32,000 bases of DNA from Candidatus Methylomirabilis limnetica (GCF_003044035.1 NZ_NVQC01000013.1:30001-62000), one strand, 5' to 3'; positions 614-15,118 are shown, counted from the stretch's first letter. Notes: generated by a model not told the origin, from the sequence alone. A program made the numbers and translations.

Positions 614-665
614 ATCGGCCGTGGTGCGGCCGCGGCCGCATGGGGTGTTGCTCAGCTAACCGTGG

Positions 666-1082: not shown

Positions 1083-1137
1083 AATTCCCTCCTTAATTCC
1101 CCAGAAGAGCGTCTGTCGTGTCTATATCAGGCCGTAG

Positions 1138-1215
1138 GTCGGGTTAGCGCAGCGTAACCCGACAACTCGGAATCCTCCTCCCTCCTTTATGAAAGGGGGG
1201 TGGGGGGGATTTATC
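1138..1215. repeat. REP-like hairpins
   Basis: GTCGGGTTA-gcgcagcg-TAACCCGAC (1138-1163), followed by a CCTCCTTTATGAAAGGGGGG GC hairpin unit (1174-1215). Confidence 0.5.
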
Positions 1216-1312
1216 GGGGGTATGCCAGGTCCAGACCTCCTTTCCAATACGACAGTGGCCGCATGAACGCAGATATTTATGATGCATGGGTGGCCCCAGG
1301 GACCCCTGAGAA

Positions 1313-1594
1313 TCAATTATATTTTCTCTTTGTATTCCCTGAAGCCGGTAACCAATTGCCGGAAAGAGGTGGGTTTGTATTTCTCAAAGCTCTCTTCGTC
1401 CACGTAAACAAAGTCATCGTATAGAGCTGCTCGGTATCCACATCGAAATAGCCATGAGCCGGAACATCCCGAAGTCCCATGGCCACGCGCCATTGCACTT
1501 GCGGGTAGCGGGTAAAAAGCTTGCCCTCCGTTTGCTTATCAATATTCTTGAACTCCTCTCCGGCGGCGATCAAGATCCTACAGACGGTATCCAT
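1313..1594 (-). pseudogene. DUF86/HepT-type HEPN gene, degraded at the 5' end
   Basis: The ORF keeps ILIAAGEEFKNI and the R-x4-H motif (GLRDVPAHGYFDVD). The upstream in-frame sequence (ALEGIPRRCADISQPSDFSADDAG) is cut off by TAG at 1601-1603. The expected ATGA-coupled start at 1719 leads into a different frame. An alternative 3' frame reads more protein-like (LYDDFVYVDEESFEKYKPTSF). Confidence 0.55.
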
Positions 1595-1715
1595 ACGGTC
1601 CTATCCAGCGTCGTCGGCCGAAAAATCGCTCGGCTGGGAGATGTCGGCGCAGCGGCGGGGAATTCCCTCCAACGCCATCAATACGGTTTGCTATCTTTCC
1701 AATAACAAACCAGAA

Positions 1716-2051
1716 TCATACATAGATCGCCTCCCGTTCGATTCTGGCTTTTAGACGTGGATTCATGGTGTCTCGCAACCGAACGACGTCCACCGGATGA
1801 TTCAGGAAGGCTTCCAGATCCTGTTTTAGCATGGCGGTTATGAACAGATCGGGGCGATCAGTCTGGAAAACCACATCATCCTTCCTGATTCTATTCAGCG
1901 CTTCTCCAAGAATCTCGAACTTCCGCTCAACACCACTCCGGAGTAATTCATCCTGCTCATATTCGTCAAACGTCTTTCCACGGACGAACCGGAGAATGGC
2001 CGAAGCAGCTTCTCTGATATCGTAGAGGTACTTGAGGAGCTCATCCTCCAT
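1716..2051 (-). CDS. chimeric ORF: DUF86/HEPN N-terminal half fused to an MNT C-terminal tail
   Basis: The N-terminal half MEDELLKYLYDIREAASAILRFVRGKTFDEYEQDELLRSGVERKFEILGEALNRI is a typical DUF86 start, but no R-x4-H follows. The C-terminal HPVDVVRLRDTMNPRLKARIEREAIYV matches the C terminus of MNT proteins (compare KIDLLTVSGLRNPYFRRKVLKERMNIY in the neighbouring gene). Confidence 0.6.
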   Translation of the reverse strand: MEDELLKYLYDIREAASAILRFVRGKTFDEYEQDELLRSGVERKFEILGEALNRIRKDDVVFQTDRPDLFITAMLKQDLEAFLNHPVDVVRLRDTMNPRLKARIEREAIYV

Positions 2052-2337
2052 ATATGTTCATCCTCTCCTTGAGAACCTTGCGGCGGAAATAGGGATTTCT
2101 GAGACCGCTGACCGTGAGTAGGTCAATCTTGCACCCCAAGGTATCTTCGAGATAATGGAGCAGTCCGAAGAATCTCTTGGATGGGTGCAGATGGGGCTCC
2201 TCGAACTCAACGAGGAGGTCAACATCGCTTCCAGCAGTTCCCTCGCCGCGCGTGAGCGACCCGAAAAGGTCTAGCCTCTTTACTTTGAATTCCCTGCAAG
2301 CCGGCACTGCAACACTCTTAATGTCTTGCAAAGTCAT
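2041..2337 (-). CDS. minimal nucleotidyltransferase (MNT, antitoxin-type)
   Basis: LDLFGSLTRGEGTAGSDVDLLVEF signature. I prefer the ATG at 2337 (GGAGG 8 nt upstream) over the track start at 2439. The stop overlaps the start of the next ORF. Confidence 0.8.
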   Translation of the reverse strand: MTLQDIKSVAVPACREFKVKRLDLFGSLTRGEGTAGSDVDLLVEFEEPHLHPSKRFFGLLHYLEDTLGCKIDLLTVSGLRNPYFRRKVLKERMNIYGG

Positions 2338-2815
2338 CAATGCATCCTCCGAATCGACCCAGGCGCCCTGTAATCTAACTGTGTGGGCCGCTTTAGAGAC
2401 CGATACAGGCCAACGGCCTATCTTCAAAGGCGGCACCACTATTCACCGGCGAATTTGTTCGCAATATCGCACTCTTACCCCAACCGGTCAAGACTCTTCT
2501 GGCCGACAATCGCTGGTGGCTTCGGTGGAACGTCACGATATGCGGCATAACGCCCCGCATGAGGCGCGCGTCAGCGCGTCGCTCTCGATGCGCTCTATGC
2601 GATGTTATCAGAAAATGGGGTCTGACCCCAAATGCCTGTTCCGTTTCTCGTGAATCCCACAAAAGAGACTTGCGAATCGTGCGAAGGGACGTTACCCTAA
2701 AACAGCGATAGGGATGAATGAAAAACCTTGTGGGCCGCTCTGGGAGCGGATATAAAGGGGGTGAGCAATCACATTCCCTTTAACCCACAAGGTGAGGCCA
2801 TGGTACGACAAACGG

Positions 2816-2968
2816 ATGCTGCCCTTCAAGCTCGAACGAACAGACGAGACGCTGACCGCCCATGGTGGCCTCGCCCTGATCGCGGAGTTCACTCACGGCC
2901 TCGGGCTGCGGGCGCTCGTGGCATGGCACCTGCCGCACCCAGGGAGCGAGAGGATGGGCAACGCATGA
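2816..2968 (+). pseudogene. N-terminal stub (50 codons) of a DDE transposase (IS1380/IS4-like)
   Basis: ATG 2816 to TGA 2966-2968 reads MLPFKLERTDETLTAHGGLALIAEFTHGLGLRALVAWHLPHPGSERMGNA. The pattern (T-x-x-GGL-x-L-x-x-F ... LP-x-PGS) is as I recall it from the N-termini of IS1380-type transposases. No transposase body follows. Confidence 0.45.
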
Positions 2969-3153
2969 CATAATAAGGGGAGGAGTCTGTCTCAGAGCAT
3001 GGCATGCTGACTCCAGGAGGCTGCGTGGCAGGTGACCCCCTGCCAAGTGCCTCGCATATGGCGAGTCATGCCGGTCACCTGGTCGTAAAACGGCGGTGAT
3101 TGGCGTGCAGCGGTATTTCAGCAATGGCGATCTCTAGTTTTTGGGAACTCACG

Positions 3154-3845
3154 TGAACTTGCCTGCTGCCAATGAATGTGGTACGGTTATTGCCGTTGTG
3201 GGCGGTTATACGCTGCTGCTACCACGAATCAAATGGGCAGCGCTAGGGTAGCCTATGCGGCGTTACTCGATTTTTAGCTGAGACGGGTTGTAGTGGTCCT
3301 GTTCAGCTTTGAAGGAGTCCGGCGGATCAAGATGAAGGACGGTGGCGAGCATGACCCTCAAAGCGAGCCGGGGGTGCAGTGAACATGTCCGTAACAGAGT
3401 CATTGAAAGAGATCAGCGCCCGCTACAACCTTGGGGCGGTGTATGCCTTCGGTAGCCGAGCGACTGAAGTCGCCAGCCGGGTGTGCGGTGAAGCGACATC
3501 GCCGCAGTTGCCTGAGTCGGATGTAGACATCGGGGTGCAGCCTCTCCCTGGCCCCCGCCTGACGGCACAGGAGCGGGTCCGGCTCTCTATCGAGTTGGAG
3601 GATCTGCTGGGGGCGACCCGCGTGGATCTGGTGGTGCTGTCGGAAGCCGATCCGTTTCTCGCGTTAGAGGTCATTCGGGGGGAGCTCCTGTGCTGCACCG
3701 ACGCCGACGCCCAGGCAGAGGATGAGCTCTACGTCTTGCGGCGTGCTGGGGACCTGGCGCCATACGCCCGTGAGCGTTGGCAGTTGATCCTCTCGGGTGA
3801 GACAAGATGACTCCTGGGCAGTTGCACGCCAAGATCGTGGCGGAG
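3154..3845. repeat. segmental duplication, copy 1 (partner 13575-14268)
   Basis: Collinear by eye with 13575-14268 (offset 10421-10423). The copy contains a junction motif, a degenerate NTase 5' fragment, the MNT gene and the first 13 codons of a DUF86 gene. Confidence 0.9.
3379..3810 (+). CDS. minimal nucleotidyltransferase (MNT), now without a functional HEPN partner
   Basis: VYAFGSRATEV...PESDVDIGVQ signature. GTG 3379 or ATG 3385 start. 12 differences in 143 aa versus the ORF at 13802-14233. Confidence 0.85.
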   Translation: MNMSVTESLKEISARYNLGAVYAFGSRATEVASRVCGEATSPQLPESDVDIGVQPLPGPRLTAQERVRLSIELEDLLGATRVDLVVLSEADPFLALEVIRGELLCCTDADAQAEDELYVLRRAGDLAPYARERWQLILSGETR

Positions 3846-3854
3846 GATGAGTAG
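3807..3854 (+). pseudogene. 15-codon stub of the cognate DUF86/HEPN gene
   Basis: ATGA-coupled MTPGQLHAKIVAEDE*. It matches the first 13 codons of the ORF at 14230, then the homology breaks at 3846. Confidence 0.6.
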
Positions 3855-3860
3855 AGAGCT

Positions 3861-4739
3861 ATGCGCATTGGCGTAAACCCGCTCCCGCTGGTCTCGATCA
3901 TCACCCCTTCTCTCAACCAGGGACGGTTCATCCGGGATACCATCGAGAGCGTTCTCTCGCAGGACTATCCCAGGATGGAATACCTCGTCATGGACGGGGG
4001 CTCCACGGACGAGACCCTGGACATACTGCGGAGCTATGGGGACCGGATCACGTGGAGGTCGGGCCCTGATGGAGGTCAGGCCGCTGCAGTCAACTCTGGC
4101 GTTCACCTCGCCACAGGCGAGATTCTCGGATGGCTGAACTCCGACGACACGTACCAGCCTGGTGCCGTGACGGCAGCGGTTGAGCATCTCATCGCTCACC
4201 CGGAGACAGCCGTCGTCTACGGAGACGCCCATTACATCGACGAGCAGAATAGAGTGATCGGGATCTATCCAACAGAGGATTTCGCTCTAGACCGATTGGC
4301 CCACGCCTGCCTCATCTGTCAGCCGGCCGCCTTCTTCCAGCGCACAGCGATCGAGGCGGTGGGGGCGCTCGATGCAAGTCTTCAGTACTGTATGGACTAC
4401 GACCTCTGGATCCGGTTGGGACGACTATTTCCACTGAAACGGATCCCTGGATTTCTGGCCAACTCACGACAGTACCCGCAGACGAAGACCTGGTCGCAGC
4501 GAGATCGGCTCTTCACAGAGCTCTGCGTGGTGACACAGCGCTACTTCGGATTTACCTCTCCCCACTGGCGGGTCTGGCACGCCTATGCGCGACTCAAGGG
4601 TGTCTCCTGGCCGATAGCGCGATCGGTGCTATATCCAGTCAAGGCAGTGTTGCCGGAACGCGCCTCCCGGTGGCTCAGAGTGACGCTTCCGTTAGTGATC
4701 AACCGGCTGATCCCCTGGAATCTTCGCGCTCGGAGGTAG
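3861..4739 (+). CDS. family 2 glycosyltransferase
   Basis: VSIITPSLNQGRFIRDTIESVLSQDYPRMEYLVMDGGSTDETLDIL...WLNSDDTY. Paralogous to the C-terminal domain of the ORF at 29735-31672. Confidence 0.9.
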   Translation: MRIGVNPLPLVSIITPSLNQGRFIRDTIESVLSQDYPRMEYLVMDGGSTDETLDILRSYGDRITWRSGPDGGQAAAVNSGVHLATGEILGWLNSDDTYQPGAVTAAVEHLIAHPETAVVYGDAHYIDEQNRVIGIYPTEDFALDRLAHACLICQPAAFFQRTAIEAVGALDASLQYCMDYDLWIRLGRLFPLKRIPGFLANSRQYPQTKTWSQRDRLFTELCVVTQRYFGFTSPHWRVWHAYARLKGVSWPIARSVLYPVKAVLPERASRWLRVTLPLVINRLIPWNLRARR

Positions 4740-4742
4740 GCG

Positions 4743-4805
4743 GTGAAGCGGGTCCTCATCACCGGGATGACCGGCCAGGATGGATCGTACCTGATCAATG
4801 CTTAG
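4743..4805 (+). pseudogene. gmd: GDP-mannose 4,6-dehydratase, 20-codon 5' stub
   Basis: VKRVLITGMTGQDGSYLINA* starts 4 nt after the GT2 stop. ITG-x-TGQDGSYL is the characteristic Gmd N-terminus. Confidence 0.7.
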
Positions 4806-4884
4806 CACAAAAGACAGGAGAATAAGGAGGTTGACGAGGGATGGGAATGACCGTGGCGGCCCGTCGCCGCATGGAACAGTCTAT

Positions 4885-5055
4885 GGCATTGAGTTCCTGA
4901 ATGCCAATGATCAACTGACCGAAGACCGGGGTGCTCTCGTCGTCGAGCTGGAACTCGTTAAAGACGAACGTGGCTTTTTTGCCAGAACCTAGTGCCAGCG
5001 AAAATGTGCAGCGCACGAACTTTATCCGCGATTGGTGCAGTGCAATATCTCATGA
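4885..5055 (+). pseudogene. RmlC-like (dTDP-4-dehydrorhamnose 3,5-epimerase family) 5' fragment with an internal stop
   Basis: GALVVELELVKDERGFFART*CQRKCAAHELYPRLVQCNIS*. The DERGFF...LVQCNIS pattern is typical of RmlC-type cupins. TAG at 4990-4992 occupies the position where these proteins usually have Trp. Homology ends at the junction motif at 5051. Confidence 0.55.
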
Positions 5056-5097
5056 GTGTGGTACGGTTTTTGGCGTAGCATAGAGGGAAGTACACTT

Positions 5098-5397
5098 ATG
5101 GACCGAAGACAGAGCTACCTTGAACGCGTTCACCAGATCGTACTGCAGCACCTGAAAGGTCAGCCGGTGCGGGTGTATCTTTTTGGGTCCTGGGTTCGAG
5201 GTGACGCTCAGCGCACTTCGGACATCGACATCGCCATCCTACCATTCGGACCGCTCCCGCCCGGGCTTTTAAGTCACCTACAGGAGGCGTTAGAGGAAAG
5301 TTATGTCCCATATCCGATCGAGATGGTGGACCTCTCCCAGACCGATGTAGCCTTTCGCCGGCGAGTCATCGAGGAAGGAATTCTGTGGAGCGATTAA
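5098..5397 (+). CDS. minimal nucleotidyltransferase (MNT)
   Basis: VRVYLFGSWVRGDAQRTSDIDIAILP signature. ATG 5098 preceded by GAGGGAAG. The track start at 5056 lies inside the junction motif. Confidence 0.85.
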   Translation: MDRRQSYLERVHQIVLQHLKGQPVRVYLFGSWVRGDAQRTSDIDIAILPFGPLPPGLLSHLQEALEESYVPYPIEMVDLSQTDVAFRRRVIEEGILWSD

Positions 5398-5780
5398 AGG
5401 AACGAATTGAGGTAGCGTTCAGAGCCCTGATCACACTGGAGCAAGTTCTGCAAGAAAGCGCTCCCAGAAAGGTTGTACGCGATGCGGCCATCCAACGCTT
5501 TGAATACACCGTGGAAGCAGCATGGAAGGCAGCTCAGCGTTACTTACAGGAGGTGGAGGGTTTGAGATCGGGGTCTCCCAAGGGTGTTGTTCGGGCCTGT
5601 TTTCAGGTAGGGCTTCTAAGCGAAGAAGAGAGTGAACTGGCCCTCCAGATCATGGATGATCGTAATTTGACAGTGCATACCTACAATGAGCCTTTAGCTG
5701 AGGCCCTGTTTGCCCGTTTGCCAGAGCATGCCCGTCTGATCCGGCAGTGGCTGGAACGGCTCGCAGCGCGTGTGCAATAG
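5385..5780 (+). CDS. HI0074-family nucleotidyltransferase substrate-binding (HEPN-fold) protein
   Basis: RDAAIQRFEYTVEAAWKAAQRYL...MDDRNLTVHTYNE (R-N-x3-H-x-Y). GTG start overlapping the MNT stop by 13 nt. Confidence 0.85.
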   Translation: MERLKERIEVAFRALITLEQVLQESAPRKVVRDAAIQRFEYTVEAAWKAAQRYLQEVEGLRSGSPKGVVRACFQVGLLSEEESELALQIMDDRNLTVHTYNEPLAEALFARLPEHARLIRQWLERLAARVQ

Positions 5781-5910
5781 ACTGCCGGGACATCACCATG
5801 CATCTGCTGATCGTCGCTGCCAAGGCCGCTATACGAGCGAGCCATGAGGAAGATCACGCCGCTGCAAGGCTTTCGTATCATCCCGTTAGGCGATTACCTG
5901 CCGAGGCTTA

Positions 5911-6043
5911 GGAGGCGTCAACAATTAACATTTACATCTACCAAAGCAACAAACCCCCTTCATCCCCCTTTCGAAAGGGGGAAAGAGGGGGTTTGTACAT
6001 TTTTCGGATCATGAATATGTATATGTTATTCTTTGACGATGCC
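5911..6043 (-). mobile_element. 133-bp MITE-like element, copy A, flanked by TTA direct repeats
   Basis: Its reverse complement matches 25915-26047 with about 6-7 mismatches by eye. Imperfect 21-bp terminal inverted repeat (16/21). Long internal GC hairpin. TTA at 5908-5910 and 6044-6046. Confidence 0.7.
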
Positions 6044-6074
6044 TTACTCGCACATTTGAGCGTATCCCGAGATC

Positions 6075-6332
6075 GTGGCGGTCTATCTCTCTGTGGAGGT
6101 GTTCCAGATTCTGTGGGAGGCCGGGATTCTACCGGAGGAGTGTGTCCTGGTCCTTACCGGTGTGGGCCGTTTTCGAAATATCTTAGCCCATGTGTATATC
6201 ACTATCGAACTGGATAAGGTGTATGAGAACCTCCAGAAAGCCCAGAACAGATCAGTGAATTTATGCGGCTCGTTCAGCACTTTGTTGAAGAACAGGGGTC
6301 GCAGCAAGATCTCGCGTAAACGACGCGCTTAA
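6075..6332 (+). pseudogene. DUF86/HepT-type HEPN gene, 3' fragment with frameshift
   Basis: WEAGILPEECVLVLTGVGRFRNILAHVYITIELDKVYENLQKA carries R-x4-H-x-Y. In-frame TGA at 6057-6059 removes the N-terminus. After about 6240 a +1 frame reads better (SPEQISEFMRLVQHFVEEQG). No NTase partner is adjacent. Confidence 0.65.
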
Positions 6333-6600
6333 AATGTTCGTCTCATGGCGATCCCCTGTGGGCATCCCTTCCGGATATGATCAGGGCCAAAGGGCAGAAG
6401 ACCAATGATAAAGTCAACGTAACTGCTCAGGTAGATAGACTGTAGTCTTTTAGACTGTAGGAACGAGCTAGGCGTTTGCCGAATGTGACGCGAATCAATG
6501 ATGGAGACCGAAAAGGTTCTGGGCGCCTTGATTCGGTCCATGCGCAACGACTAACAGCCTTCAGTCTACAGCCTAAACACCTGAGTAGTTACAAGTCAAA

Positions 6601-6945
6601 ATGACAACGATCATTGAGCAGAGACGGACGCAACTAAAAGAAGCTCTTGAAAAAGCGATCCAAGTCCTGAGGGAGGAATATCATCCCCTCCGGATTATTG
6701 TTTTTGGATCGCTGGCGACGGACAAGGTCGGTGAGACCAGCGATTTAGATCTTCTGATCGTGAAGGAAACCTCCTTGCCTTTTTACGAGCGACTTCGTGA
6801 GGTGGCTCTGCTCTGTCCCTTGAAGGTTGGAGCGGACATTTTGGTTTACACCCCTGCCGAAGTTGAGCAGGCATCCCGGGATAGCCAGTTTTTTAGAGAA
6901 GAAGTCTTGGGAAAGGGTCGGGAGGTTTATCGTGCGCCCGTATGA
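6601..6945 (+). CDS. minimal nucleotidyltransferase (MNT)
   Basis: LRIIVFGSLATDKVGETSDLDLLIVKE ... ADILVYTPAEVE. Confidence 0.85.
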   Translation: MTTIIEQRRTQLKEALEKAIQVLREEYHPLRIIVFGSLATDKVGETSDLDLLIVKETSLPFYERLREVALLCPLKVGADILVYTPAEVEQASRDSQFFREEVLGKGREVYRAPV

Positions 6946-7081
6946 GCGGTGGCTGAACCAGGCATGGGATGATCTTCAATTTGCTCGCCTTGGTCTGGAA
7001 CAGGGGTTTCATGCACAGGCATGTTTTCTTTCCCAGCAGGTCATCGAAAAATGTCTGAAAGGGTGCCTGAGGTCAACCTGA
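6932..7081 (+). pseudogene. classical HEPN-domain gene truncated after about 49 codons
   Basis: GTG 6932 (overlaps the MNT stop) gives VRPYERWLNQAWDDLQFARLGLEQGFHAQACFLSQQVIEKCLKGCLRST*. This is the first helix pair of a PF05168-type HEPN protein; the remainder is missing. Confidence 0.6.
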
Positions 7082-7086
7082 GTCAA

Positions 7087-7575
7087 ATGGATACCGCTGT
7101 TAAAGAATTAGAGAAGAGGCTTCTAGCCGAAATTAAAGCCCTGTACGGCAAGAGGCTTGTGTCAGTGGTTGTGTTCGGCTCGGCTGGACAGGGAACACAA
7201 AGGTGTGACTCAGACCTGGACGTGTTGGTTGGTGCCGATCGACTCCCAAGGGGAAGAATGAAGCGTGTCGAAGAGTTTTCAATCGTGGAGAACCGGATTG
7301 AGCCTTTCTTGAAATCTCTTCAACAAGCGGGAATTGCCACCGATCTCTCTCCCGTGATCAAAAGCCCTGAGGAGGCGGAGAAAGGGAGTCCGCTGTTCCT
7401 CGACATGGTGGAGGATGCCCGCATTCTTGTGGATCGAAACGGGTTTTTCAAGGCGGTTCTGAAACGTCTTCGATGCCGGTTGGAGAAACTGGGCGCGAGG
7501 AGAATCTGGATGGGAAACGCATGGTACTGGGACCTCAAGCCGGACTATAAGCCCGGAGAATGCTTCGAGTTATGA
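7087..7575 (+). CDS. nucleotidyltransferase-domain protein with C-terminal extension
   Basis: LVSVVVFGSAGQGTQRCDSDLDVLVGAD signature. ATG 7087 preferred (alternatives 7051 and 7021 lie inside the truncated HEPN ORF). Confidence 0.8.
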   Translation: MDTAVKELEKRLLAEIKALYGKRLVSVVVFGSAGQGTQRCDSDLDVLVGADRLPRGRMKRVEEFSIVENRIEPFLKSLQQAGIATDLSPVIKSPEEAEKGSPLFLDMVEDARILVDRNGFFKAVLKRLRCRLEKLGARRIWMGNAWYWDLKPDYKPGECFEL

Positions 7576-7922
7576 CGAACGAAGACCTGGCCCAAAGTTA
7601 TCTTCGAAAGTCCATGGTTCGGCTTGATGTCCTCGATCTGTTTTTCAAAAAGCAGGATTACTCCGATGTGATCCGAGAGGCGCAGAAGATTGTAGAATTG
7701 TGTCTTAAAGGGGTGCTCCGTTATGTTGGTATTGAACTGCCGAAATTTCATGACGTCGGATTCCTTCTGCTTGAACATCACTGGCGGTGTAAGGGAATCG
7801 CCCTCAGAGATATTAAAAAGATGGCCGATATTTCCAAGCGGTTGAGGAAAGAGAGGGAGCTGGTTTTCTACGGGGATATTGATTTCATCCCAACCGATCA
7901 ATCAGAGGTAAAGGCGAGGTGA
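7572..7922 (+). CDS. classical HEPN-domain protein
   Basis: ATGA overlap with the upstream stop. YSDVIREAQKIVELCLKGVLRYVGIELPKFHDVG ... RKERELVFYGD. Confidence 0.8.
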   Translation: MTNEDLAQSYLRKSMVRLDVLDLFFKKQDYSDVIREAQKIVELCLKGVLRYVGIELPKFHDVGFLLLEHHWRCKGIALRDIKKMADISKRLRKERELVFYGDIDFIPTDQSEVKAR

Positions 7923-8341
7923 GCTTGAGCACAATCTACACGCTCGATCACGACGAACGGTCACGCATCATGGATCAGTTCGTGTCCGAACTGGCATCAG
8001 AACCGGGGATGGCCTTTGCGTACCTCTATGGGTCGTTTGTGGATTCCGAGGCGTTCCGGGATGTGGATGTTGGGGTGTATATGCGTTCCATGGCGCCGGG
8101 CGAGATGACCACGCGCGCTATGGCGCTCGCCCAGTGCCTCAGTACGAAGGTGCGGCTTCCCGTGGATGTCCGCGTGCTGAACGCCGCCCCTATTCCATTC
8201 CTCTACCACGTTCTACGGGGACACCTTCTCTTGAGTCACGATGACGATCTCCTCACCGAGGTGATTGAGCGGACCGCTTGCCGCTATCTTGACATCGCCT
8301 CGCTATTGCGCTCGAGTGCGCGGGAGGCGTTTGCGGCATGA
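7919..8341 (+). CDS. mntA: MntA-type nucleotidyltransferase antitoxin
   Basis: GTGA overlap with the upstream stop. FAYLYGSFVDSEAFRDVDVGVYM ... VDVRVLNAAP. Followed by an ATGA-coupled DUF86 gene. Confidence 0.85.
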   Translation: MSLSTIYTLDHDERSRIMDQFVSELASEPGMAFAYLYGSFVDSEAFRDVDVGVYMRSMAPGEMTTRAMALAQCLSTKVRLPVDVRVLNAAPIPFLYHVLRGHLLLSHDDDLLTEVIERTACRYLDIASLLRSSAREAFAA

Positions 8342-8754
8342 CGCTGAACGCTGATCTCGTCCGGGCCCGCTGTGCCGAGATCGAGGAATCGGTGAGCCGT
8401 TTGGAGCGGTTCAAGACCCTCCCTCGTGACGCATTTCTGGGAGATCAGGACACCCTTGATCTGGCGTGCTACCGGCTCTTGGTGGCGATGGAGGCGGCAT
8501 TGGCCCTCTGCTACCACGTCTCGGCCAAACGCCTCCGAAAGGTCCCAGAGGACTATGCCCAATGTTTCGGGATACTGCAGGAGGCGGCTATCATTCCCTC
8601 AGAACTTGCCGCTCGCCTTCAGTGGATGGCAAGGTTTCGGAATCTGCTCGTGCACATGTACTGGAAGGTCGACTATGGGGTGGTCTACGACGTGATCCGG
8701 GATAATCTGGAGGATTTGCGCGCCCTTAGCGCGGCGGTTGCTCGTCTCATCTGA
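8338..8754 (+). CDS. hepT: HepT-type (DUF86) HEPN toxin; the only full-length DUF86 gene in the window
   Basis: MARFRNLLVHMYWKVDYGVVYDVI (R-x4-H-x-Y). 138 aa. ATGA overlap with mntA. Confidence 0.9.
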   Translation: MTLNADLVRARCAEIEESVSRLERFKTLPRDAFLGDQDTLDLACYRLLVAMEAALALCYHVSAKRLRKVPEDYAQCFGILQEAAIIPSELAARLQWMARFRNLLVHMYWKVDYGVVYDVIRDNLEDLRALSAAVARLI

Positions 8755-8786
8755 AACGATGAGGTGAAGGATCGGGCAAGGATGGA

Positions 8787-8880
8787 ATGTCCGCGAATCT
8801 CAACACAAGAATCCTGGTGACCGGTGGGGCAGGGTTTCTCGGCTCGTATGTCGTCGAGCGGCTCCGCGCCGGAGGATACA
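8787..8880 (+). pseudogene. SDR-family NAD-dependent sugar epimerase/reductase, 5' stub (fcl-like)
   Basis: [31 protein letters not shown] parallels [31 protein letters not shown] of the intact gene at 27192. Similarity is lost after about 30 codons. Confidence 0.6.
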
Positions 8881-9100
8881 CGGAGACCTTACAGAACGAT
8901 CGAGTGGCACCGACAGACCCAGGTGTGATCCCGGGCAAGGCGCCATGGACCGGAGGAGGCATGAGGGGTAGTGGTGCATCTGTTCCGGGGGTCCTCTCCG
9001 CGTTTGACAGTGCGGACACAGGCATATATCATCCACGCTCGATTCGCAGTGTGAGCGGTCAGGCCTGTGGTAGCGGAATCGGGCTCCCCGAGAGGAGCAG

Positions 9101-9180
9101 GTGGAGACAACAGACCGAATAGGCAGCGCCAAGGCCGCCTACGGGGCGGCGCGGGGGAGGCGGTGCGCATTGGTGCACGC
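9101..9180 (+). pseudogene. deletion remnant: NTase 5' end joined to HEPN 3' end
   Basis: 9101-9152 matches the first ~50 nt of the NTase gene at 14759 (GGAGACAAC-GACCGAAT...GCCTACG-GGCG). 9150-9170 matches GCGGGGGAGGCGGTGCGC at 15441-15458 near the 3' end of the HEPN gene. Confidence 0.55.
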
Positions 9181-9249
9181 TGGGCGGGAGCGCTCCCGCC
9201 AGTTTTCCTGGGAGCGTACGGTGGAATCGCATCAGAAGAGCGGTAAGGA

Positions 9250-9567
9250 ATGGATGTAGGAACCATACACCGATTAGTTGCCGAGGGAAGGTATGAGTTT
9301 TCAAAGCATGCCGAGAGGGAACGAGAGGCCGATATGATCTCTACCACCGAGCTGGAAGAGGCTCTGAAGCGTTGCGACATCATCGAGAATTATCCGGATG
9401 ACCCTCGATGGCCGAGCTGTCTGGTTCTCGGATTTTCAGGTCAAAGACCTATCCATGCTGTGTGTAGCGTGAAACGAGATCCTGAGGAGCTTTTCCTCAT
9501 CACGGTGTATGATCCTTCCAAGCGGCCAGAGCACTGGATGGACCGTTACAAGCGGAGAAGGAGGTGA
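9250..9567 (+). CDS. DUF4258-domain protein (putative toxin)
   Basis: YEFSKHAEREREADMISTTELEEALKRCDIIENYPDDPRWPSCLVLGFSGQRPIHAVCSV...LFLITVYDP matches the DUF4258 pattern as I recall it. Confidence 0.75.
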   Translation: MDVGTIHRLVAEGRYEFSKHAEREREADMISTTELEEALKRCDIIENYPDDPRWPSCLVLGFSGQRPIHAVCSVKRDPEELFLITVYDPSKRPEHWMDRYKRRRR

Positions 9568-9571
9568 TTCT

Positions 9572-9820
9572 GTGACCAGGGTGTATCATCGGTGCCACTT
9601 CTGTGGAGGGGAGGTGGTCGAGCAACGAGTGACCGTGGATTATCGCTGGGGGGACACGTTCTTGGTGGTCATTCGCCATGTGCCGGCTGGGGTCTGCCAG
9701 GTATGTGGGGAGCAGTATTTGAAGGCCGAAGTGGTCAAAGAGATGGAAAAGGTGGCCCATTCTCAAGAGGAGGCAAAAGAAGTCCTTCGAATCCCTGTCA
9801 GGGAGCTGAAAGTAGCTTAG
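9572..9820 (+). CDS. YgiT-type (MqsA N-terminal-like) zinc-finger protein, putative antitoxin
   Basis: GTG 9572 with GGAGAAGGAGG upstream. C-x2-C ... C-x2-C: HRCHFCGGEVVEQRVTVDY...VPAGVCQVCGEQYL. No HTH domain is appended. Confidence 0.75.
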   Translation: MTRVYHRCHFCGGEVVEQRVTVDYRWGDTFLVVIRHVPAGVCQVCGEQYLKAEVVKEMEKVAHSQEEAKEVLRIPVRELKVA

Positions 9821-9969
9821 GGTTCGATCCTACAGGCAAGGCGGTGAGGCTGGTCGAGATCATGGGGGATGACCATGTGAGCGAAGAATGGCTGGGAGAA
9901 TAAGCCTAGTTGGCGTCCTGACCCAGACCTACCAGTGGGTCGAGCGAATTTGCAAGGACGGAGCGCCGG

Positions 9970-10120
9970 ATGGAGACCATGGACCAGATAGGCAGCGCCA
10001 AGGCCACCTACGGGGCCTTGCGAGAGTCCTCGGGGAAGGAATTTTGTGGAGCTGAAGCAGTCTGGAAGGCAGCTCAGCGGTACTTGCAAGAGATGGAGGG
10101 GGTACGTGATCGCTAAAAGG
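9970..10120 (+). pseudogene. chimeric remnant: NTase 5' fragment + HI0074-type HEPN internal fragment
   Basis: 9970-10033 resembles the 5' end of the gene at 14759. 10046-10120 resembles 5510-5585 of the HI0074-type gene (AVWKAAQRYLQEMEG vs AAWKAAQRYLQEVEG), followed by a stop. Confidence 0.55.
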
Positions 10121-10161
10121 TGCCGCTCGATCCTACTTCCAGACCAAGAGGGTTCGCCGCA

Positions 10162-10583
10162 ATGATTCATAAGACTTCGCTCCCCAAAGATAGTGAGGAG
10201 CGGCTACGCTCCCTTGGCCCAGCGTTACAACAATGCTCTGGTGTCCTCTTCGCCTACCTGTTTGGCGGGGCGACGGTTTCACCCCTCAAGCCCCTGAGCG
10301 ATGTGGATGTGGCTGTTACCTTGATGACCCTGTCGATCTGGTCGAGGGGCGTCTGGAGGCCATCGGCGTAGTAACCACGCACCTGCATACCGACGAGGTA
10401 GACGTGGTAGTCCTCAATACGGCGCCGACGGCCTTGACGGGACGGATCCTTCAGACCCGACGGGTCATCTTCGACCGCGATCCGTTCCGCCGACACCTCT
10501 TCGAGTCACTTGCGCTCCGAGAGTTCTTCGACTTCCGCATCTTCGAACATCGCCTCCTGGCCAGGAGGCACGGCAATGGTTGA
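10162..10583 (+). pseudogene. MNT nucleotidyltransferase with a -1 frameshift
   Basis: Frame A gives VLFAYLFGGATVSPLKPLSDVDVAV. The sequence continues in frame B as YLDDPVDLVEGRLEAIGVVTTHLHTDEVDVVVLNTAP.... The junction at about 10317-10320 (GCT GT|T ACC) looks like a 1-nt loss, unless it is a sequencing error. Confidence 0.7.
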
Positions 10584-11294
10584 CAGGGACCTCCTCCTCC
10601 GGAAACTAGCGGATCTTGACCAGTATCTGGGCCAAGTATCAGAGTACCGGGACATCACCATCGACCAGTATCGAGGAGACTGGAAGACCCAGCGTATTGT
10701 CGAGCGGACTCTCCAAATGACCATCGAGCTGTGCGTGGACATTGCCAACCATATCATCGCCGACCGGGGACTCCGGGTCCCGGCAACCTATTCTGGGTTC
10801 TTCCGGCATTAGCGTGGGTACGAGGGAGCTCAATATCCCTTCTGGGGAAGAGGGTGGCTGTGTTCCTCCCCCTCGAGGGGGGAGGATGAAGGTGGGGGTG
10901 ATCGGAGGCTTTCGGAGCGTCACCCATAGCGTCTCTTGGGCTGTGTGGGCGTGTGCGTGTCACCCGCTGACATCGTGCATGGCATGCGCCCTCCCACCCG
11001 CGCCCTCCCCCCGGATCGAGTCCGGGGCAGGCTCTCGGTGGGGGGAGGGGATGCTGGAAGGCCCGGGTACCCACGGAACACCCGGAAGAACCCTATTCCG
11101 AGGCGTTTGACGTCCTGGGCGAGGCCGGACTCCTGGACGCAGCTCGGCGAGATGCCATGATCCGCATGAGCAAGTTCCGTAATGTGATCGTCCACGACTA
11201 TGTGCGGGTAGACCCCACGATTGTCGTGCAGATCCTGCGTGAGCATCTCGAAGACTTGACCCGGTTCAAGGTGGCCGCGCTGAAGTGGATATAG
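10576..11294 (+). pseudogene. DUF86/HepT-type HEPN gene split by a ~300-bp MITE
   Basis: The 5' part is MVDRDLLLRKLADLDQYLG...IADRGLRVPATYS. The 3' part (11094-11294) is YSEAFDVLGEAGLLDAARRDAMIRMSKFRNVIVHDYVRVD...KWI*. Removing 10794-11098 restores one 137-codon frame. Confidence 0.8.
10794..11093. mobile_element. MITE-like insertion with perfect 12-bp TIRs and a TATTC target duplication
   Basis: GGGTTCTTCCGG (10795-10806) and CCGGAAGAACCC (11082-11093) are exact reverse complements. TATTC occurs at 10789-10793 and 11094-11098. No credible ORF inside. Contains a CCTCCCCCTCGAGGGGGGAGG hairpin. Confidence 0.75.
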
Positions 11295-11440
11295 CGTGCG
11301 TACGACTACTCTGCCAGGAGGCATGGTAAGAGATGGAGATGAGCGTAGCGTCCCGACGTCGGTTGTTATTGGACATGGCCCGCAGGCGGGCGCAACCGGG
11401 AACCGGCAGCTCCAGACTCTTCCTGGAAGCTCGAACGGCT

Positions 11441-11953
11441 ATGACGTACTGGCCTGATCTTACGCCGACGCTCACCGGCATCCCATGGGCCGTGGTGGGG
11501 GCCGTTGCTACCCGAGCCTACATGCCTGAGCGCACCACTCAGGACCTGGACATCCTGGTGAATGTGTCGGATCAGGAAGAGGTGAGAGTACGCCTGCAAC
11601 GGGCCGGCTTTCTTCCGGTGCAAGAGCTTGCCATCGGGGGTATGACCTGGCGCTCCCCTATGGGGGCCATAGTAGATGTCATTGAGTCTCGGGCGGAGTG
11701 GGTGTCGGAAGCGCTCCAGTCGCTGAGACAGGACCGCCAGGGACTTCCCGTGCTTGACCTGCCGTATCTCGTCCTGATGAAGGTTGAGGCGGGACGCGCG
11801 CAGGATCTGGCGGATGCGGCACGCATGCTTGGGGCAGCATCGGAGGCTCGCCATCAGGAGACCTGTGAGCTCTTTCGCCGCTATCTACCCGACGCACAGG
11901 ACGACCTGGAGAGTCTTATCGCCTTGGGTCGCCTGGAGATGGGGAATGAGTAA
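11441..11953 (+). CDS. solitary nucleotidyltransferase-fold protein (DUF6036/AbiEii-like)
   Basis: WAVVGAVATRAYMPERTTQDLDILV and LPYLVLMKVEAGRAQDLADAARM resemble standalone NTase-fold proteins. ATG 11441 preferred over the Arg-rich extension from 11333. Confidence 0.5.
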   Translation: MTYWPDLTPTLTGIPWAVVGAVATRAYMPERTTQDLDILVNVSDQEEVRVRLQRAGFLPVQELAIGGMTWRSPMGAIVDVIESRAEWVSEALQSLRQDRQGLPVLDLPYLVLMKVEAGRAQDLADAARMLGAASEARHQETCELFRRYLPDAQDDLESLIALGRLEMGNE

Positions 11954-12010
11954 TGTTTTTAGAACGATCGGGTGGTATAGGAAGACTCAACCTTTGGCTG
12001 AGAGGCAATC

Positions 12011-12083
12011 TTATTACTCAGAGCATAAAATAGCTTGCCCCCCTTTAGCAAAGGGGGGTAAGGGGGGTTTTGAACGATCGGTA
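12011..12083. repeat. 73-bp dispersed repeat (second copy at 16343-16415)
   Basis: TTATTACTCAGAGCATAAAATAGCTTGCCCCCCTTTAGCAAAGGGGGGTAAGGGGGGTTTTGAACGATCGGTA is nearly identical at both sites. Confidence 0.85.
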
Positions 12084-12090
12084 CAAATCA

Positions 12091-12168
12091 CCTCTTTCCC
12101 CCTTTCGAAAGGGGGATGAAGGGGGTTTGTTGCTTTGGTAGATGTAAATGTTAATTGTTGACGCCTCC
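12091..12168 (+). mobile_element. 133-bp MITE family, partial copy B (right ~78 bp)
   Basis: Matches 25970-26047 almost exactly (CCTCTTTCCCCCTTTCGAAAGGGGGATGAAGGGGGTTTGTTGCTTTGGTAGATGTAAATGTTAATTGTTGACGCCTCC). The left third is missing. Confidence 0.75.
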
Positions 12169-12383
12169 TAAACGACGCATCACTGGCCTTTCGTTACCAC
12201 GCCATGACGGGACAACCTCCGCTTTCTTCTCTTCGCTCGCCGGTATCTCCGTGAGGTGCTGAGTGCGTGAGATCGACTTGGAGCGGCTCAGGGAACTGGC
12301 GGGGCAACTGCGAAGCGCGGTGCGGGAGCTTACGGCGACCAGTACCTGGCCGCCATCGGCCATCACGTGAAGGCTCATCTCTT

Positions 12384-12510
12384 TTGAATCCACTGGGGGT
12401 TCATTCCCCTCGGCGTGCCGCGAGTTCGTCATACCGGCGGACCCCGGATCAGAGTCCGGGGCAGGCGCCGGTATCCAGAGGGCCCGACTGGATTCCCCCG
12501 TATCAAGCGG
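12384..12510 (+). repeat. REP/MITE-like repeat family 2, copy 1
   Basis: TTGAATCCACTGGGGGTTCATTCC...GCCGCGAGTTCGTCATACCGGCGG...GGTATCCAGAGGGCCCGACTGGATTCC is shared with 16043-16228 and 26938-27095. It generates the recurrent artefactual ORF start MPRVRHTGG. Confidence 0.8.
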
Positions 12511-12583
12511 AACACCTGGGTTTTATTGATCGGGATAAATCTGGCGATACCAGAGTGCTTTCGCCGGGAGGCAGCATGTGCGC

Positions 12584-12612
12584 TTGACATTCACAGGCGT
12601 GACAGATAAAAT
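12584..12612 (+). promoter_or_regulatory. near-consensus sigma70 promoter for vapBC
   Basis: TTGACA (12584-12589), 17-nt spacer, TAAAAT (12607-12612). Lies at the edge of a conspicuously AT-rich 80-bp stretch just upstream of the ATG at 12664. Confidence 0.5.
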
Positions 12613-12663
12613 TCATTATGTATGTCAAATAGATAAAGTATCGACGAATAGGTAAATAATCTG

Positions 12664-12915
12664 ATGCTTATCATTAAAGTAGGACGTCGAGGACAGATTA
12701 CAGTCCCTAAAGCGATCCGCCGATGGCTCAACCTCCAGGAGGGCGATCGGCTGGCCTTCGTCCGTCGGGGCGACGAGGTCATTCTGCAGCCCCTCACCCG
12801 CACGTTGTTGGACCTGCGGGGAAGTGTCCCTGTATCAGGACCTCAGGATTTCGCCGCCATTCGCCAGCAGGTGATCGATCGCCACGCTCGCCAGGTCATC
12901 GAGAATGACGCCTGA
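12664..12915 (+). CDS. vapB: AbrB/MazE/SpoVT-family antitoxin
   Basis: MLIIKVGRRGQITVPKAIRRWLNLQEGDRLAFVRRGDEVILQP is a looped-hinge-helix (AbrB-type) motif. Overlaps the PIN gene by 11 nt. Confidence 0.85.
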   Translation: MLIIKVGRRGQITVPKAIRRWLNLQEGDRLAFVRRGDEVILQPLTRTLLDLRGSVPVSGPQDFAAIRQQVIDRHARQVIENDA

Positions 12916-13339
12916 GCGCCTCTTCGCCGACACCAATCTTTTTTTGCGCTACCTGACCAACGATGTGCCGGAACAGGCAGAGGCCGTCGAGCAGGTGCTC
13001 CGTCGTGCAGCGGCTGGAGAGCTGGTCCTCGTGACGAACACACTGGTCATGGCGGAGATTGTGTGGACACTGGAAACCTTCTACCAACTCCCGAGAAGTG
13101 ACATCAAAGACAAGGTATTGGCCATCCTGAACACCCCTGGGCTCGAGGTGGCGGATGGCGACCTGATGCTGCAAGCCATGACCTGGTATACGGAGAAGAA
13201 TGTGGGCTTCATCGATGCCTACAATGCGGCCTGGATGCGAGGCGTGGGGTTGATGATTGCCTGCACATTTGACCGAAAACACTTTTCCCGCCTCGAAGGG
13301 GTGACCGTGATGGTTCCGGGAGCCGATCCTCCCGGCTAA
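12905..13339 (+). CDS. vapC: PIN-domain ribonuclease toxin
   Basis: Acidic residues in the expected PIN positions: LFADTNLFL, VMAEIVW, GFIDAYNAAW, CTFDRKHF. Confidence 0.85.
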   Translation: MTPERLFADTNLFLRYLTNDVPEQAEAVEQVLRRAAAGELVLVTNTLVMAEIVWTLETFYQLPRSDIKDKVLAILNTPGLEVADGDLMLQAMTWYTEKNVGFIDAYNAAWMRGVGLMIACTFDRKHFSRLEGVTVMVPGADPPG

Positions 13340-13424
13340 CCTAACCTCCGCGCTCGACAGCGCGACGGATGATATTCGGGCCTCTCTTCGCCCCGAAAGT
13401 CCCCCTCGGCCGCCTGATCTGTAG

Positions 13425-13445
13425 GGGCGGGGTTTATCCCCGCCC
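13425..13445 (+). terminator. GC hairpin downstream of vapC (REP-like or terminator)
   Basis: GGGCGGGG-TTTAT-CCCCGCCC, an 8-bp perfect stem. No clear U-tract. Confidence 0.3.
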
Positions 13446-13508
13446 GGTAAGCAGGAGGGCGCACGAGGTATTGGTTGTATGAAGCTGACCGCAATGAGCG
13501 ACGTGTGA

Positions 13509-13552
13509 GACGACCTGGAGAGCCTCACCACCCTGGGCCGGTTAGAAATGGA
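13509..13552 (+). pseudogene. ghost copy of the 3' end of the 11441-11953 gene
   Basis: DDLESLTTLGRLEMD versus DDLESLIALGRLEMG. DNA similarity runs from GACGACCTGGAGAG onward. Confidence 0.5.
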
Positions 13553-13574
13553 CCGACCGCTGCTAACACGCAAA

Positions 13575-14268
13575 TGAACTTGCCTGCTGCCAATGAATGT
13601 GGTACGGTTCTTGCCATTGTATGAAGTTATACTCTGCTGCTCACATGGACTTAATAGGCAGCGCCAAGGCCGCCTACGCGGCGTTGCTGGAGTCCTTGAT
13701 GAAGTGGGTCGTAGTGGTCCTGTCTGGCCTTAAGGGGGTCAGGCTGATCAAGATGGAGTAACGGTGGCGACCATGACCATCAAGGCGAAACCTAGGGTGT
13801 AGTGAACATGTCCGTAACAGAGCCGTTAAAAGAGATCAGCGCGCGCTACAACCTTGGGGCGGTGTATGCCTTCGGCAGCCGAGCGACCGAAGTCGTCAGC
13901 CAGGTGTACGGTGAAGCGACATCACCGCAGTTTCCTGAGTCGGATGTAGACATCGGGGTACAGCCTCTCCCAGGTCACCGCCTGACGGCACAGGAGCGGG
14001 TCCGGTTCTCTATCGAGCTGGAGGACCTGCTCGGCGTCGGCCGTGTGGATCTCGTAGTGCTACCGGAGGCCGATCCGTTTCTTGCACTGGATGTCATTCG
14101 GGGGGAGCTCCTGTGTTGCGCCGACGCCGACGCCCAGGCGGAGGATGAACTCTACGTCTTGCGGCGAGCTGGGGACCTGGCGCCATACGCCCGTGAGCGT
14201 TGGCAGTTGATCCTCTCGGGTGAGACAAGATGACTCCTGGGCAGTTGCGCGCCAAGATCGTGGCGGAG
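13575..14268. repeat. segmental duplication, copy 2 (partner 3154-3845)
   Basis: See copy 1. The same order of junction motif, NTase 5' fragment, MNT gene and DUF86 start. Confidence 0.9.
13802..14233 (+). CDS. minimal nucleotidyltransferase (MNT)
   Basis: VYAFGSRATEV...PESDVDIGVQ. Paralog of the gene at 3379-3810. Confidence 0.85.
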   Translation: MNMSVTEPLKEISARYNLGAVYAFGSRATEVVSQVYGEATSPQFPESDVDIGVQPLPGHRLTAQERVRFSIELEDLLGVGRVDLVVLPEADPFLALDVIRGELLCCADADAQAEDELYVLRRAGDLAPYARERWQLILSGETR

Positions 14269-14475
14269 CGAGCGGCGTGGATCCGGCGGATGGTGGCCTC
14301 CCTCCGGGCTTTGCCTGGGGAGAGTTTCGAGACCTTTCAATCAGATTCCCGCAACATCGCTGCAGCCGAATCGTATCTGCGCCGGGCATTGGAGGCGCTT
14401 CACCTTCCCGATTCCAAAAGTGAGAGTGGTAGAATTCTAGTGGAGGAGGGATGTTATACTTGCCGAGTATATTGA
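14230..14475 (+). pseudogene. DUF86/HepT-type HEPN gene truncated before the catalytic motif
   Basis: ATGA-coupled MTPGQLRAKIVAERAAWIRRMVASLRALPGESFETFQSDSRNIAAAESYLRRALEAL is DUF86-like. From about 14400 the sequence is unrelated and there is no R-x4-H. Confidence 0.65.
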
Positions 14476-14482
14476 CAAGGCT

Positions 14483-14725
14483 ATGGAACAAGCCGTTTAT
14501 GAGATTATTGAGGACGAACGAACGTACTGGGGAGAGATTCCTGGTCTTCAAGGTGTGTGGGCGCGTCATGCTACGTTAGAGGGTTGCCGACGTGAACTCC
14601 GTGAGGCGCTGAGTGACTGGATGGCGTTGCGTTTGCGACTGGGCCTAGCGATTCCCGTTGTAGCAGGTATTGATCTGAATCAAATTACACAGCACTCGAT
14701 GTGCCGTGCGAGCCGTCAGGTCTGA
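14483..14725 (+). CDS. hicB: HicB-like (UPF0150) antitoxin domain protein, no intact HicA nearby
   Basis: YEIIEDERTYWGEIPGLQGVWARHATLEGCRRELREALSDWMALRLRLGLAIP matches the HicB N-terminal domain pattern. Confidence 0.65.
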   Translation: MEQAVYEIIEDERTYWGEIPGLQGVWARHATLEGCRRELREALSDWMALRLRLGLAIPVVAGIDLNQITQHSMCRASRQV

Positions 14726-14758
14726 GGTCGCGGAATCGAGTTCCCAGAAGAGCATCCG

Positions 14759-15118
14759 ATGGAGACAACGGACCGAATATACAGCGCCAGGGCTGCCTAC
14801 GCGGCGCTGCTAGAGTCCTCGCTGAAGCGGGTTGTAACGGTCCTGTCCGGCCTTGAAGGGATCAAGCGGATCAGCCTCGTGGGGTCCTATGCCCGGGGCC
14901 GGGCCGATCTGTTCACCGATCTCGACATCCTGGTGGTGATGGACACGGATCTCAGCTTTATCGACCGCCTTCGCATGTTGTACCCGCTCCTGGCCCTGCC
15001 CGTGGACCTGGACCTGCTGTGCTATACCCCTGGGGAGTTAGAGCGGATGCAGGACCGACCGTTCATAAAGCATTTGCGTCGAGAGGAGGTAGTCCTCTAT
15101 GAGACGAGCACCTCGTGA
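14759..15118 (+). CDS. nucleotidyltransferase-domain protein
   Basis: [25 protein letters not shown] ... [13 protein letters not shown]. Confidence 0.85.

Follow-up and report, generated by a model that had tools for sequence, protein, structure and literature searches.

HEPN/MNT gene pairs form the type VII toxin–antitoxin (TA) systems, in which the HEPN protein, HepT, is an RNase toxin and the nucleotidyltransferase (NTase) MntA neutralises it by AMPylation (adenylylation) (PMC7641770). A whole islet of such pairs lies in a 32,000-nt stretch of DNA from Candidatus Methylomirabilis limnetica (GCF_003044035.1 NZ_NVQC01000013.1:30001-62000), here called the window; all coordinates are positions in it unless a contig is named. 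Between 1300 and 15600, small NTase (MNT) and HEPN genes are densely packed, nearly all on the plus strand. The subject of this article is the asymmetric decay of these modules, in which lesions of the toxin gene alone exceed lesions of the antitoxin gene alone.

The islet resembles the type VII pair of Shewanella (SO_3166/SO_3165; PMC7641770, PMC4621449, PMC11586414) in several ways. The NTase gene stands upstream of the HEPN gene and overlaps it, the NTases carry G-S...D-x-D, the intact HepT proteins carry R-x4-H, and the same Pfam families are involved (PF01909/PF18765 with PF01934). Motifs read from the translations are FGS...DVDLLV (2041), FGS...DVDIGV (3379/13802), RNLLVH (8338) and RNVIVH (11085-11291). 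The adjacent, co-oriented, overlapping order was found in 7919/8338, where the overlap is 4 nt, and in the ancestral forms of the modules at 2041 (L119 and L112), 10162 (L004) and 13802 (L003 and L031); L numbers denote related genomes and contigs. By analogy, the HEPN proteins of the islet would be RNase toxins neutralised by NTase AMPylation.

Unlike the described pairs, the islet mixes three HEPN families, which Pfam scans assign to HepT/DUF86 (PF01934), HEPN PF05168 and NTase_sub_bind (PF08780). Most copies are degraded, and they are known here from sequence alone. The PF05168-type members also differ in their motifs. The HEPN at 15099 has TRYPNSV, with the H of R-x4-H replaced, where TT1696 has RYPDAH; the family of the HEPN at 7560 has an invariant R..FY (R-x4-Y). 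Because the canonical motif is missing from both, the toxin function of such pairs is uncertain.

Erosion of TA genes has been described in Photorhabdus by Belot et al. 2026 (PMC13617665). There, TA systems cluster in spots of high turnover and erode by truncation and deletion. Pseudogenes were counted in the toxin only in 185 cases, in both genes in 186 and in the antitoxin only in 8, and a two-step decay was proposed in which the toxin is inactivated first (Mine et al. 2009 is cited there). The islet is similar in that its TA genes are clustered, are eroded by truncation and deletion, show more toxin-only than antitoxin-only lesions and include a class with both genes broken. It differs in that the antitoxin is an enzyme (type VII) and not a labile binding protein, and the host is an uncultured NC10-like bacterium. 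In addition, many junction deletions fuse adjacent modules into chimeric open reading frames (ORFs), and one orphan antitoxin has been duplicated.

The islet is a further instance of this published toxin-first decay, in another TA type and another phylum, and is neither a new phenomenon nor a new kind of system. It offers a compact, well-resolved natural case of TA islet erosion, with several decay stages of the same modules kept in related genomes. The toxin-first rule, experimentally shown for type II systems in Photorhabdus, is extended to enzymatic type VII NTase/HEPN pairs and to an uncultured methane-oxidising lineage.

Finally, genomes often contain solo toxin and antitoxin genes (PMC2701414). 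As with solo antitoxins and anti-addiction modules (PMC2654758, PMC2701414), intact antitoxin genes persist in the islet without a functional cognate toxin. Unlike in anti-addiction modules, neutralisation of other toxins by the islet NTases is a proposal.

Broken toxin genes beside intact antitoxin genes

The inventory was drawn from an ORF listing, Pfam scans and a comparison of the window with itself. The modules are as follows.

1416-1723, minus strand: HepT pseudogene, partner of the clipped NTase 1716-1878; two in-frame stops, 3' deletion at codon ~102, RDVPAH motif region kept; Pfam HepT-like 11-104
1716-1878, minus strand: 3' remnant of a second NTase, codons 49-101 of 101, catalytic N-terminus gone; 94% identity to P0175; fused in frame to the HepT remnant 1879-2051
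1879-2051, minus strand: HepT (DUF86) remnant, codons 1-58 of 120, without R-x4-H; 98% identity to P0123; homology to L119 and L112 ends at 1879
2041-2439, minus strand: intact MntA-type NTase without a working partner; Pfam NTP_transf_2/Polbeta; gene callers use a 98-residue form starting at 2337
3379-3810, plus strand: intact NTase, 143 residues; Pfam Polbeta; 91% amino acid identity to the 13802 paralog
3807-3845, plus strand: HepT stub, first 13 codons of a gene for 152 residues; joined to a chimeric glycosyltransferase start
5056-5780, plus strand: intact pair, NTase 5098-5397 and HEPN 5385-5780 of NTase_sub_bind type (HI0074-like) with RNLTVH; Pfam 2-125 of 126
6601-6945, plus strand: intact NTase, 114 residues; Pfam NTP_transf_2/Polbeta 1-88 of 93
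6935-7081, plus strand: HEPN (PF05168) remnant, 49 codons of ~132; Pfam 1-44 of 117
7021-7575, plus strand: intact NTase, 174-184 residues, by Pfam; collinear with the L111 NTase
7560-7922, plus strand: HEPN (PF05168) without the last 33 of 141 residues (final helix); breakpoint 7897; Pfam 2-99 of 117
7919-8754, plus strand: intact pair, NTase 7919-8341 and HepT 8338-8754 with RNLLVH; Pfam HepT-like 1-118 of 120
10162-10583, plus strand: NTase with a -1 frameshift (TTT to TT) at 10315/10316; joined translation matches Polbeta 6-92
10576-11291, plus strand: HepT gene split in two (10576-10794 and ~11085-11291); halves match profile 2-63 and 56-116, joined 112.9 bits
13802-14233, plus strand: intact NTase, 143 residues; Pfam Polbeta; same gene in 5 other assemblies
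14230-14475, plus strand: HepT remnant keeping codons 1-57 of 152 ahead of an unrelated tail, without R-x4-H, by comparison with the 152-residue HepT
14759-15530, plus strand: intact pair, NTase 14759-15118 and HEPN PF05168 15099-15530; Pfam 3-114 of 117; full-length match to TT1696 structure 1UFB (residues 6-127, C-terminal helix included)

The NTases at 2041, 3379, 6601, 7021 and 13802 are full-length ORFs with G-S...D-x-D motifs, and the breakpoints of the HEPN genes differ (codons 13, 57, 58, about 47 and 108). An earlier reading of this sequence, the original prediction, had named four full-length NTases (2041, 3379, 6601 and 13802) whose partners were each inactivated in a different way. 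Alignment to full-length homologs confirms that all four partners are truncated. The lesions are real and their breakpoints differ; two of them, at 3379 and 13802, go back to one duplicated unit.

The partner of 2041 had been described as a chimera lacking R-x4-H, and this is exactly what is found. The ORF 1716-2051 on the minus strand joins HepT to NTase in frame: residues 1-59 match the 120-residue HepT P0123 at 98% identity, and residues 59-111 match the stretch 49-101 of the 101-residue NTase P0175 at 94%. Since the Pfam HepT-like match covers positions 1-47 of 120 only, R-x4-H is absent. The intact NTase differs by 2 residues from that of the intact modules in L112 and L119.

The undeleted state of this region can be seen in contig L119, which is syntenic with the window on the cupin/tRNA side. 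L119 10144-10606 aligns with window 1878-1416, and L119 2408-10143 (7,736 bp) is missing from the window. The lost segment spans the 3' half of the 2041-partner HepT and the first 48 codons of the next NTase, together with DUF2442, TumE, a caspase-like peptidase and an N6/N4 methyltransferase. The HEPN lesion at 2041 is one end of this 7.7-kb multi-gene deletion and not targeted decay. L119 10607-13294 (2,688 bp), with the 3' end of the second HepT and a ResIII helicase, is missing as well.

Between the two deletions lies a second module with both genes broken (1716-1878/1416-1723), which the original prediction had overlooked. The two stops in its HepT are not present in the 94%-identical intact 128-residue orthologue of L119. 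Compared with L119, this pseudogene shows 13 non-synonymous changes, 4 synonymous ones and the 2 stops (pN/pS 0.9), and the NTase remnant shows 2 and 5 changes (pN/pS 0.13). The numbers are small; they are consistent with the toxin dying first.

L119:7584-13395 (JGI Ga0209514_10000351) carries overlapping ORFs for the N6/N4 methyltransferase, the 101-residue NTase, the 128-residue HepT and a 908-residue ResIII helicase. It looks like one operon, with an MNT/HepT pair inside a type III-like restriction-modification unit. Two remnants are all that is left of this unit in the window.

The HEPN partner of 6601 is cut after 49 codons, as had been stated, and aligns at residues 3-47 of relatives of 130-137 residues. 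A close full-length orthologue was not found. A word-indexed search gave only the remnant and one 75-residue protein, and in an exhaustive search the relatives reached no more than 69% identity, so no DNA-level breakpoint was mapped.

The module 7021/7560 (7087/7572 in the original prediction) had been listed with 5098/5385, 7919/8338 and 14759/15099 as intact on both sides. The other three do have full profile coverage; the HEPN of the fourth lacks its end. Its relatives have 135-145 residues, and the window copy (116 residues) consists of residues 1-108 followed by 8 unrelated residues. L111, in which the 141-residue HEPN is intact, is 93% identical in nucleotides over 7118-7897 and continues into the C-terminal helix; the homology of the window ends at 7897. 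The clipped protein is also present in other data sets (P0001). These alignments place the module in the class of intact NTase with damaged HEPN. A PDB sequence search with this HEPN returned spurious TPR hits only.

Four genomes show this module in different states. Both genes are intact in L111, the HEPN lacks 33 residues in the window, the HEPN is cut at codon 15 beside an intact NTase in L004, and both are fragments in L031. This series shows every expected decay stage and is consistent with a toxin-first order.

In relatives, the 13802-type NTase is followed by a 152-residue HepT with YRNRLVH (for instance in L003). In the window copy at 14230, HepT homology ends at residue 57 and this motif is gone, which agrees with the predicted truncation ahead of the catalytic motif. 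The HepT beside 3379 had been called a stub of 15 codons; it is a stub, and the first 13 codons of the 152-residue gene are retained. Against the NCBIfam MntA_antitoxin model the 3379 NTase scores 58.4 bits, slightly under the 60-bit cutoff. The segment 3147-3845 is a diverged copy of 13568-14268, and the next 29 nt match 15896-15924. Judged by this match, the 3379 unit (3147-3889) appears to be an internally deleted duplicate of the 13568-15924 unit, so that the HEPN losses at 3379 and 13802 are not independent events.

The module 10162/10576 had been given as the one case with both genes hit. Its frameshift and broken HEPN gene are both found, the latter split by an inserted element and not simply truncated. 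Relative to the intact 140-residue orthologue in L004, the NTase has lost one T at 10315/10316. L004 also has an uninterrupted 139-residue HepT gene with an empty site for the element, and the C-terminal half in the window (~11085-11291) retains RNVIVH. The element (10795-11093, ~300 bp) is single-copy, with 32-nt imperfect terminal inverted repeats and an ~8-bp flanking direct repeat (CCTATTC).

Contig L002, from another sample, covers 1-4537 with 18 single-nucleotide polymorphisms (SNPs), no gaps and the same lesions. The same lesions are found in L001 (1-11082), L114 (7808-20232) and L115-L118 (four further samples, covering the 13802/14230/HicB segment), and the single indel between the other-sample contigs and the window lies in a repeat at 16416. 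Since independent assemblies share the lesions, these are not assembly errors. The single-base frameshift at 10315/10316 has support from three near-identical assemblies only. Intact versions of HepT1, NTase2/HepT2, the 7560 HEPN, the 14230 HepT and the 10162/10576 pair are carried by L112, L113, L111, L003, L031 and L004. The mapped breakpoints and the intact orthologues provide ready pairs for kill/rescue and cross-protection assays.

The asymmetry within and beyond the window

Of the modules in the window, three are intact pairs, five keep the NTase but have a damaged HEPN, and two are broken in both genes; in none is the HEPN alone intact. The claim that no intact HEPN gene stands beside a broken NTase gene is therefore correct for the window. 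A one-sided sign test on 5:0 gives p = 0.031, and on 4:0, with 3379 and 13802 collapsed, p = 0.0625. The asymmetry within the window, taken alone, is suggestive and not decisive.

A reciprocal test was made with the 13802 family. One arm consisted of loci retrieved with the NTase from GTDB genomes, each with an intact NTase and enough downstream sequence. The other consisted of loci retrieved with the full-length HepT from JGI metagenome contigs, each with a full HepT and enough upstream sequence. A full HepT follows the NTase in 15 of 20 loci of the first arm and is truncated, frameshifted or absent in the other five (L005, L006, L007, L008, L016). In the second arm, an intact NTase ORF precedes the HepT in 65/65. 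The difference (5/20 against 0/65) has a Fisher's exact p = 4.7e-4. In the same family, both genes are damaged in L022 and L025. In L062 and L105 an in-frame stop interrupts the HepT next to a full-length NTase match, and the HepT truncation points are distinct in L006, L007 and L025.

With good confidence we infer an eroding TA islet in which toxin loss was tolerated, and antitoxin loss beside an active toxin was selected against; the HEPN proteins would once have been toxic, and selection would be the cause. The islet probably once comprised a dozen or more two-gene NTase(MNT)-HEPN modules of three HEPN families, plus VapBC, DUF4258/YgiT and HicB. Its main route of erosion is by deletions of 0.1 to 8 kb that fused neighbouring genes. 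Segmental duplication, one insertion of a small inverted-repeat element, one frameshift and two nonsense mutations contributed further. A lineage that lost an NTase while the HEPN was active would have been removed, and one that lost the HEPN would have survived. Such a filter would yield the observed pattern, with the NTase intact and the HEPN crippled in five modules, both genes broken in two, and an intact HEPN beside a broken NTase in none. Several NTase 5' stubs may mark places where the HEPN was deleted in the same event. These stubs and other stray pieces are:

3221-3334, plus strand: NTase 5' stub, 14759-type, ~38 codons, in-frame stop, by sequence comparison
6075-6332, plus strand: HepT C-terminal fragment, profile 61-109, RNILAH, no NTase; directly after the hairpin-repeat copy 5907-6061
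9101-9208, plus strand: NTase 5' stub, 14759-type; preceded by a copy of the HicB (14483) 3' end
9970-10206, plus strand: NTase 5' stub, 14759-type, 23 codons (9970-10038), fused to an NTase_sub_bind-type HEPN fragment (~10040-10206), by sequence comparison
13648-13755, plus strand: NTase 5' stub, 14759-type, duplicate of 3221-3334, by sequence comparison

The four NTase stubs, the two HEPN fragments, the second doubly broken module and the 300-bp inverted-repeat element are all additions to the original prediction.

Several points weigh against selection acting on toxin loss. The numbers in the window are small (5:0, or 4:0 in independent events). The reciprocal test drew each of its arms from a separate collection, and its broken cases lie mainly in the closest relatives, in NC10/Chloroflexota. 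Some HEPN lesions are by-products of large deletions and are not toxin-specific. The clipped 7560 HEPN shows no relaxed constraint against L111, its ratio of non-synonymous to synonymous substitution rates (dN/dS) being 0.24 and that of the NTase 0.21; the cut could be recent, or the protein could have kept its function. For the PF05168-type modules of the islet toxicity is only putative, and the 15099 HEPN has no canonical R-x4-H.

The original prediction had explained the pattern in the same way, by tolerated toxin loss and lethal antitoxin loss. Its asymmetry holds and extends beyond the window. Its tally was wrong in both directions, two of its four cases are not independent, and at least one is the by-product of a multi-gene deletion.

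Other explanations of the orphan antitoxins

The orphan NTases may have been kept because they are useful, and not just because their prior loss is lethal. They could serve as trans-acting catalytic neutralisers of incoming or paralogous HepT (anti-addiction), much as the original prediction had suggested, or in another nucleotidyltransferase role. This is possible, and we consider it unlikely to be the main explanation. Between NT_3379 and NT_13802 there are 27 synonymous and 13 non-synonymous changes (dN/dS 0.14), and the dead NTase stubs next to them are only 78.5% identical, both with acquired stops. The two genes appear, from these counts, to be under purifying selection. For NT_2041 against the L112 NTase, dN/dS is 0.03. 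Loci with the NTase alone are also found repeatedly in NC10 and Chloroflexota genomes, and their HEPN genes end at different points (residues 0, 29 and 91 retained). However, the low values may mostly predate orphaning. Pairwise dN/dS of window copies against intact orthologues cannot separate the periods before and after toxin loss and is given little weight. Orphan NTases also decay, as in L022 and L025. Their identity to the NTases of the intact modules of the locus is about 37% or less, which makes neutralisation of those particular toxins doubtful.

A more specific form of this idea can be imagined, because MntA-type antitoxins act catalytically, by AMPylation, and not by stoichiometric binding. 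Orphans of this type might serve as inexpensive trans-acting immunity against HepT brought in by mobile elements, and so be retained and even duplicated. The 13802-type clade of NC10/Chloroflexota might then have repeatedly shed the toxin and kept the enzyme for this purpose. We regard this as speculative and rather improbable.

Chance and geometry form a third, improbable explanation, in which deletions joining the modules of a head-to-tail array happen to clip the 3' gene, the HEPN, with no selection. Only four or five independent events are available (p = 0.03-0.06), and most lesions are junction deletions, as this explanation would have it. The geometry is symmetric, however, and deletions on the 5' side should equally often leave an NTase 3' fragment with an intact HEPN. 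The sole NTase 3' fragment (1716-1878) adjoins a HepT with two stops, none of the four NTase 5' stubs has a downstream HEPN, and the family-wide test found an intact HepT without an intact NTase in 0/65 loci. The evidence favours selection as the cause of the toxin-first asymmetry.

It is most improbable that the short HEPN ORFs are whole genes from families of shorter proteins, or that the stops and frameshifts are assembly errors, the two outcomes that were to overturn the original prediction: several remnants are annotated as genes with HEPN/HepT Pfam matches, and the 10315/10316 frameshift with its three near-identical assemblies lies in a short T run, but each remnant aligns to just part of a near-identical longer relative, DNA homology ends abruptly at the junction, and assemblies distinguished by SNPs share all lesions they cover.

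Setting of the islet and minor observations

The islet lies between a tRNA-Met gene (414-490) and a cupin gene on the left and sugar-nucleotide and glycosyltransferase genes, part of a polysaccharide gene cluster, on the right. Several of its segments have their best matches, at 78-88% nucleotide identity, in a Candidatus Methylomirabilis metagenome-assembled genome (L004) and similar contigs. A second copy of the tRNA-Met 3' end, sought across the window as a mark of an integrated element, was not found, nor was an att-like boundary. An Rfam search of the window gave the tRNA as its sole match.

Further TA genes in the islet are VapBC (12664/12905), DUF4258 with a YgiT-type zinc finger (9250/9509) and a HicB-like (UPF0150) antitoxin gene (14483-14725). 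The last of these follows directly after the junction that truncates the 14230 HepT. It has no recognisable HicA and may be another orphan antitoxin.

Within 14792-14887, at the 5' end of the 14759 NTase, L115, L116 and L118 differ from the window by 15 SNPs in 100 bp, and hardly elsewhere. This cluster looks like a short recombination tract. Gene conversion from the NTase stubs of the window was considered as its source and rejected, since the variant bases match no stub.

A 206-residue ORF (11333-11953) has a TQDLDILV motif. Pfam, NCBIfam and PADLOC gave no match to it, and PDB gave a faint one (E = 0.19), to an AbiEii/AbiGii NTase toxin, which did not classify the ORF. L003 and L004 have conserved it immediately upstream of their 13802-type NTase, and a duplicate of part of its 3' end lies at 13494-13550.

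A minimal islet is found in a related genome at L031:1418-4135, with ~1.2 kb between GT2 and epimerase genes. It contains only a 3' remnant of NT_7021 fused to a 13802-type NTase, and an intact 152-residue HepT. Islet content is thus highly variable among close relatives.

Fragments of sugar genes occur within the islet: an epimerase N-terminus at 8787, a GT4-like start at 15881 and a chimeric GT2 at 3861. The GT2 gene (3861-4739) is apparently chimeric in that its first 29 nt match the start of the GT4-like fragment (15896-15924). The remainder has a paralog in the GT2 domain of the 29735-31672 gene and an orthologue (82%) in L031.

Two repeat families are present. Palindromic CCCCC...GGGGG hairpin repeats, similar to miniature inverted-repeat transposable elements or repetitive extragenic palindromes, occur at 519-612, 5907-6061, 12011-12171, 16343-16461 and 25897-26051, and stand at several islet junctions. 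The second family (~130-180 bp, unrelated to coding sequence) occurs at 12380-12508, 16039-16218 and 26935-27086, and one of its copies truncates the GT4-like fragment at 15881.

Finally, tandem imperfect repeats of ~195 nt lie at 29999-30345 and encode a coiled-coil region (...AERRREALEAVTTDRDAWEARYQQ...) in the N-terminal half of a 645-residue glycosyltransferase.

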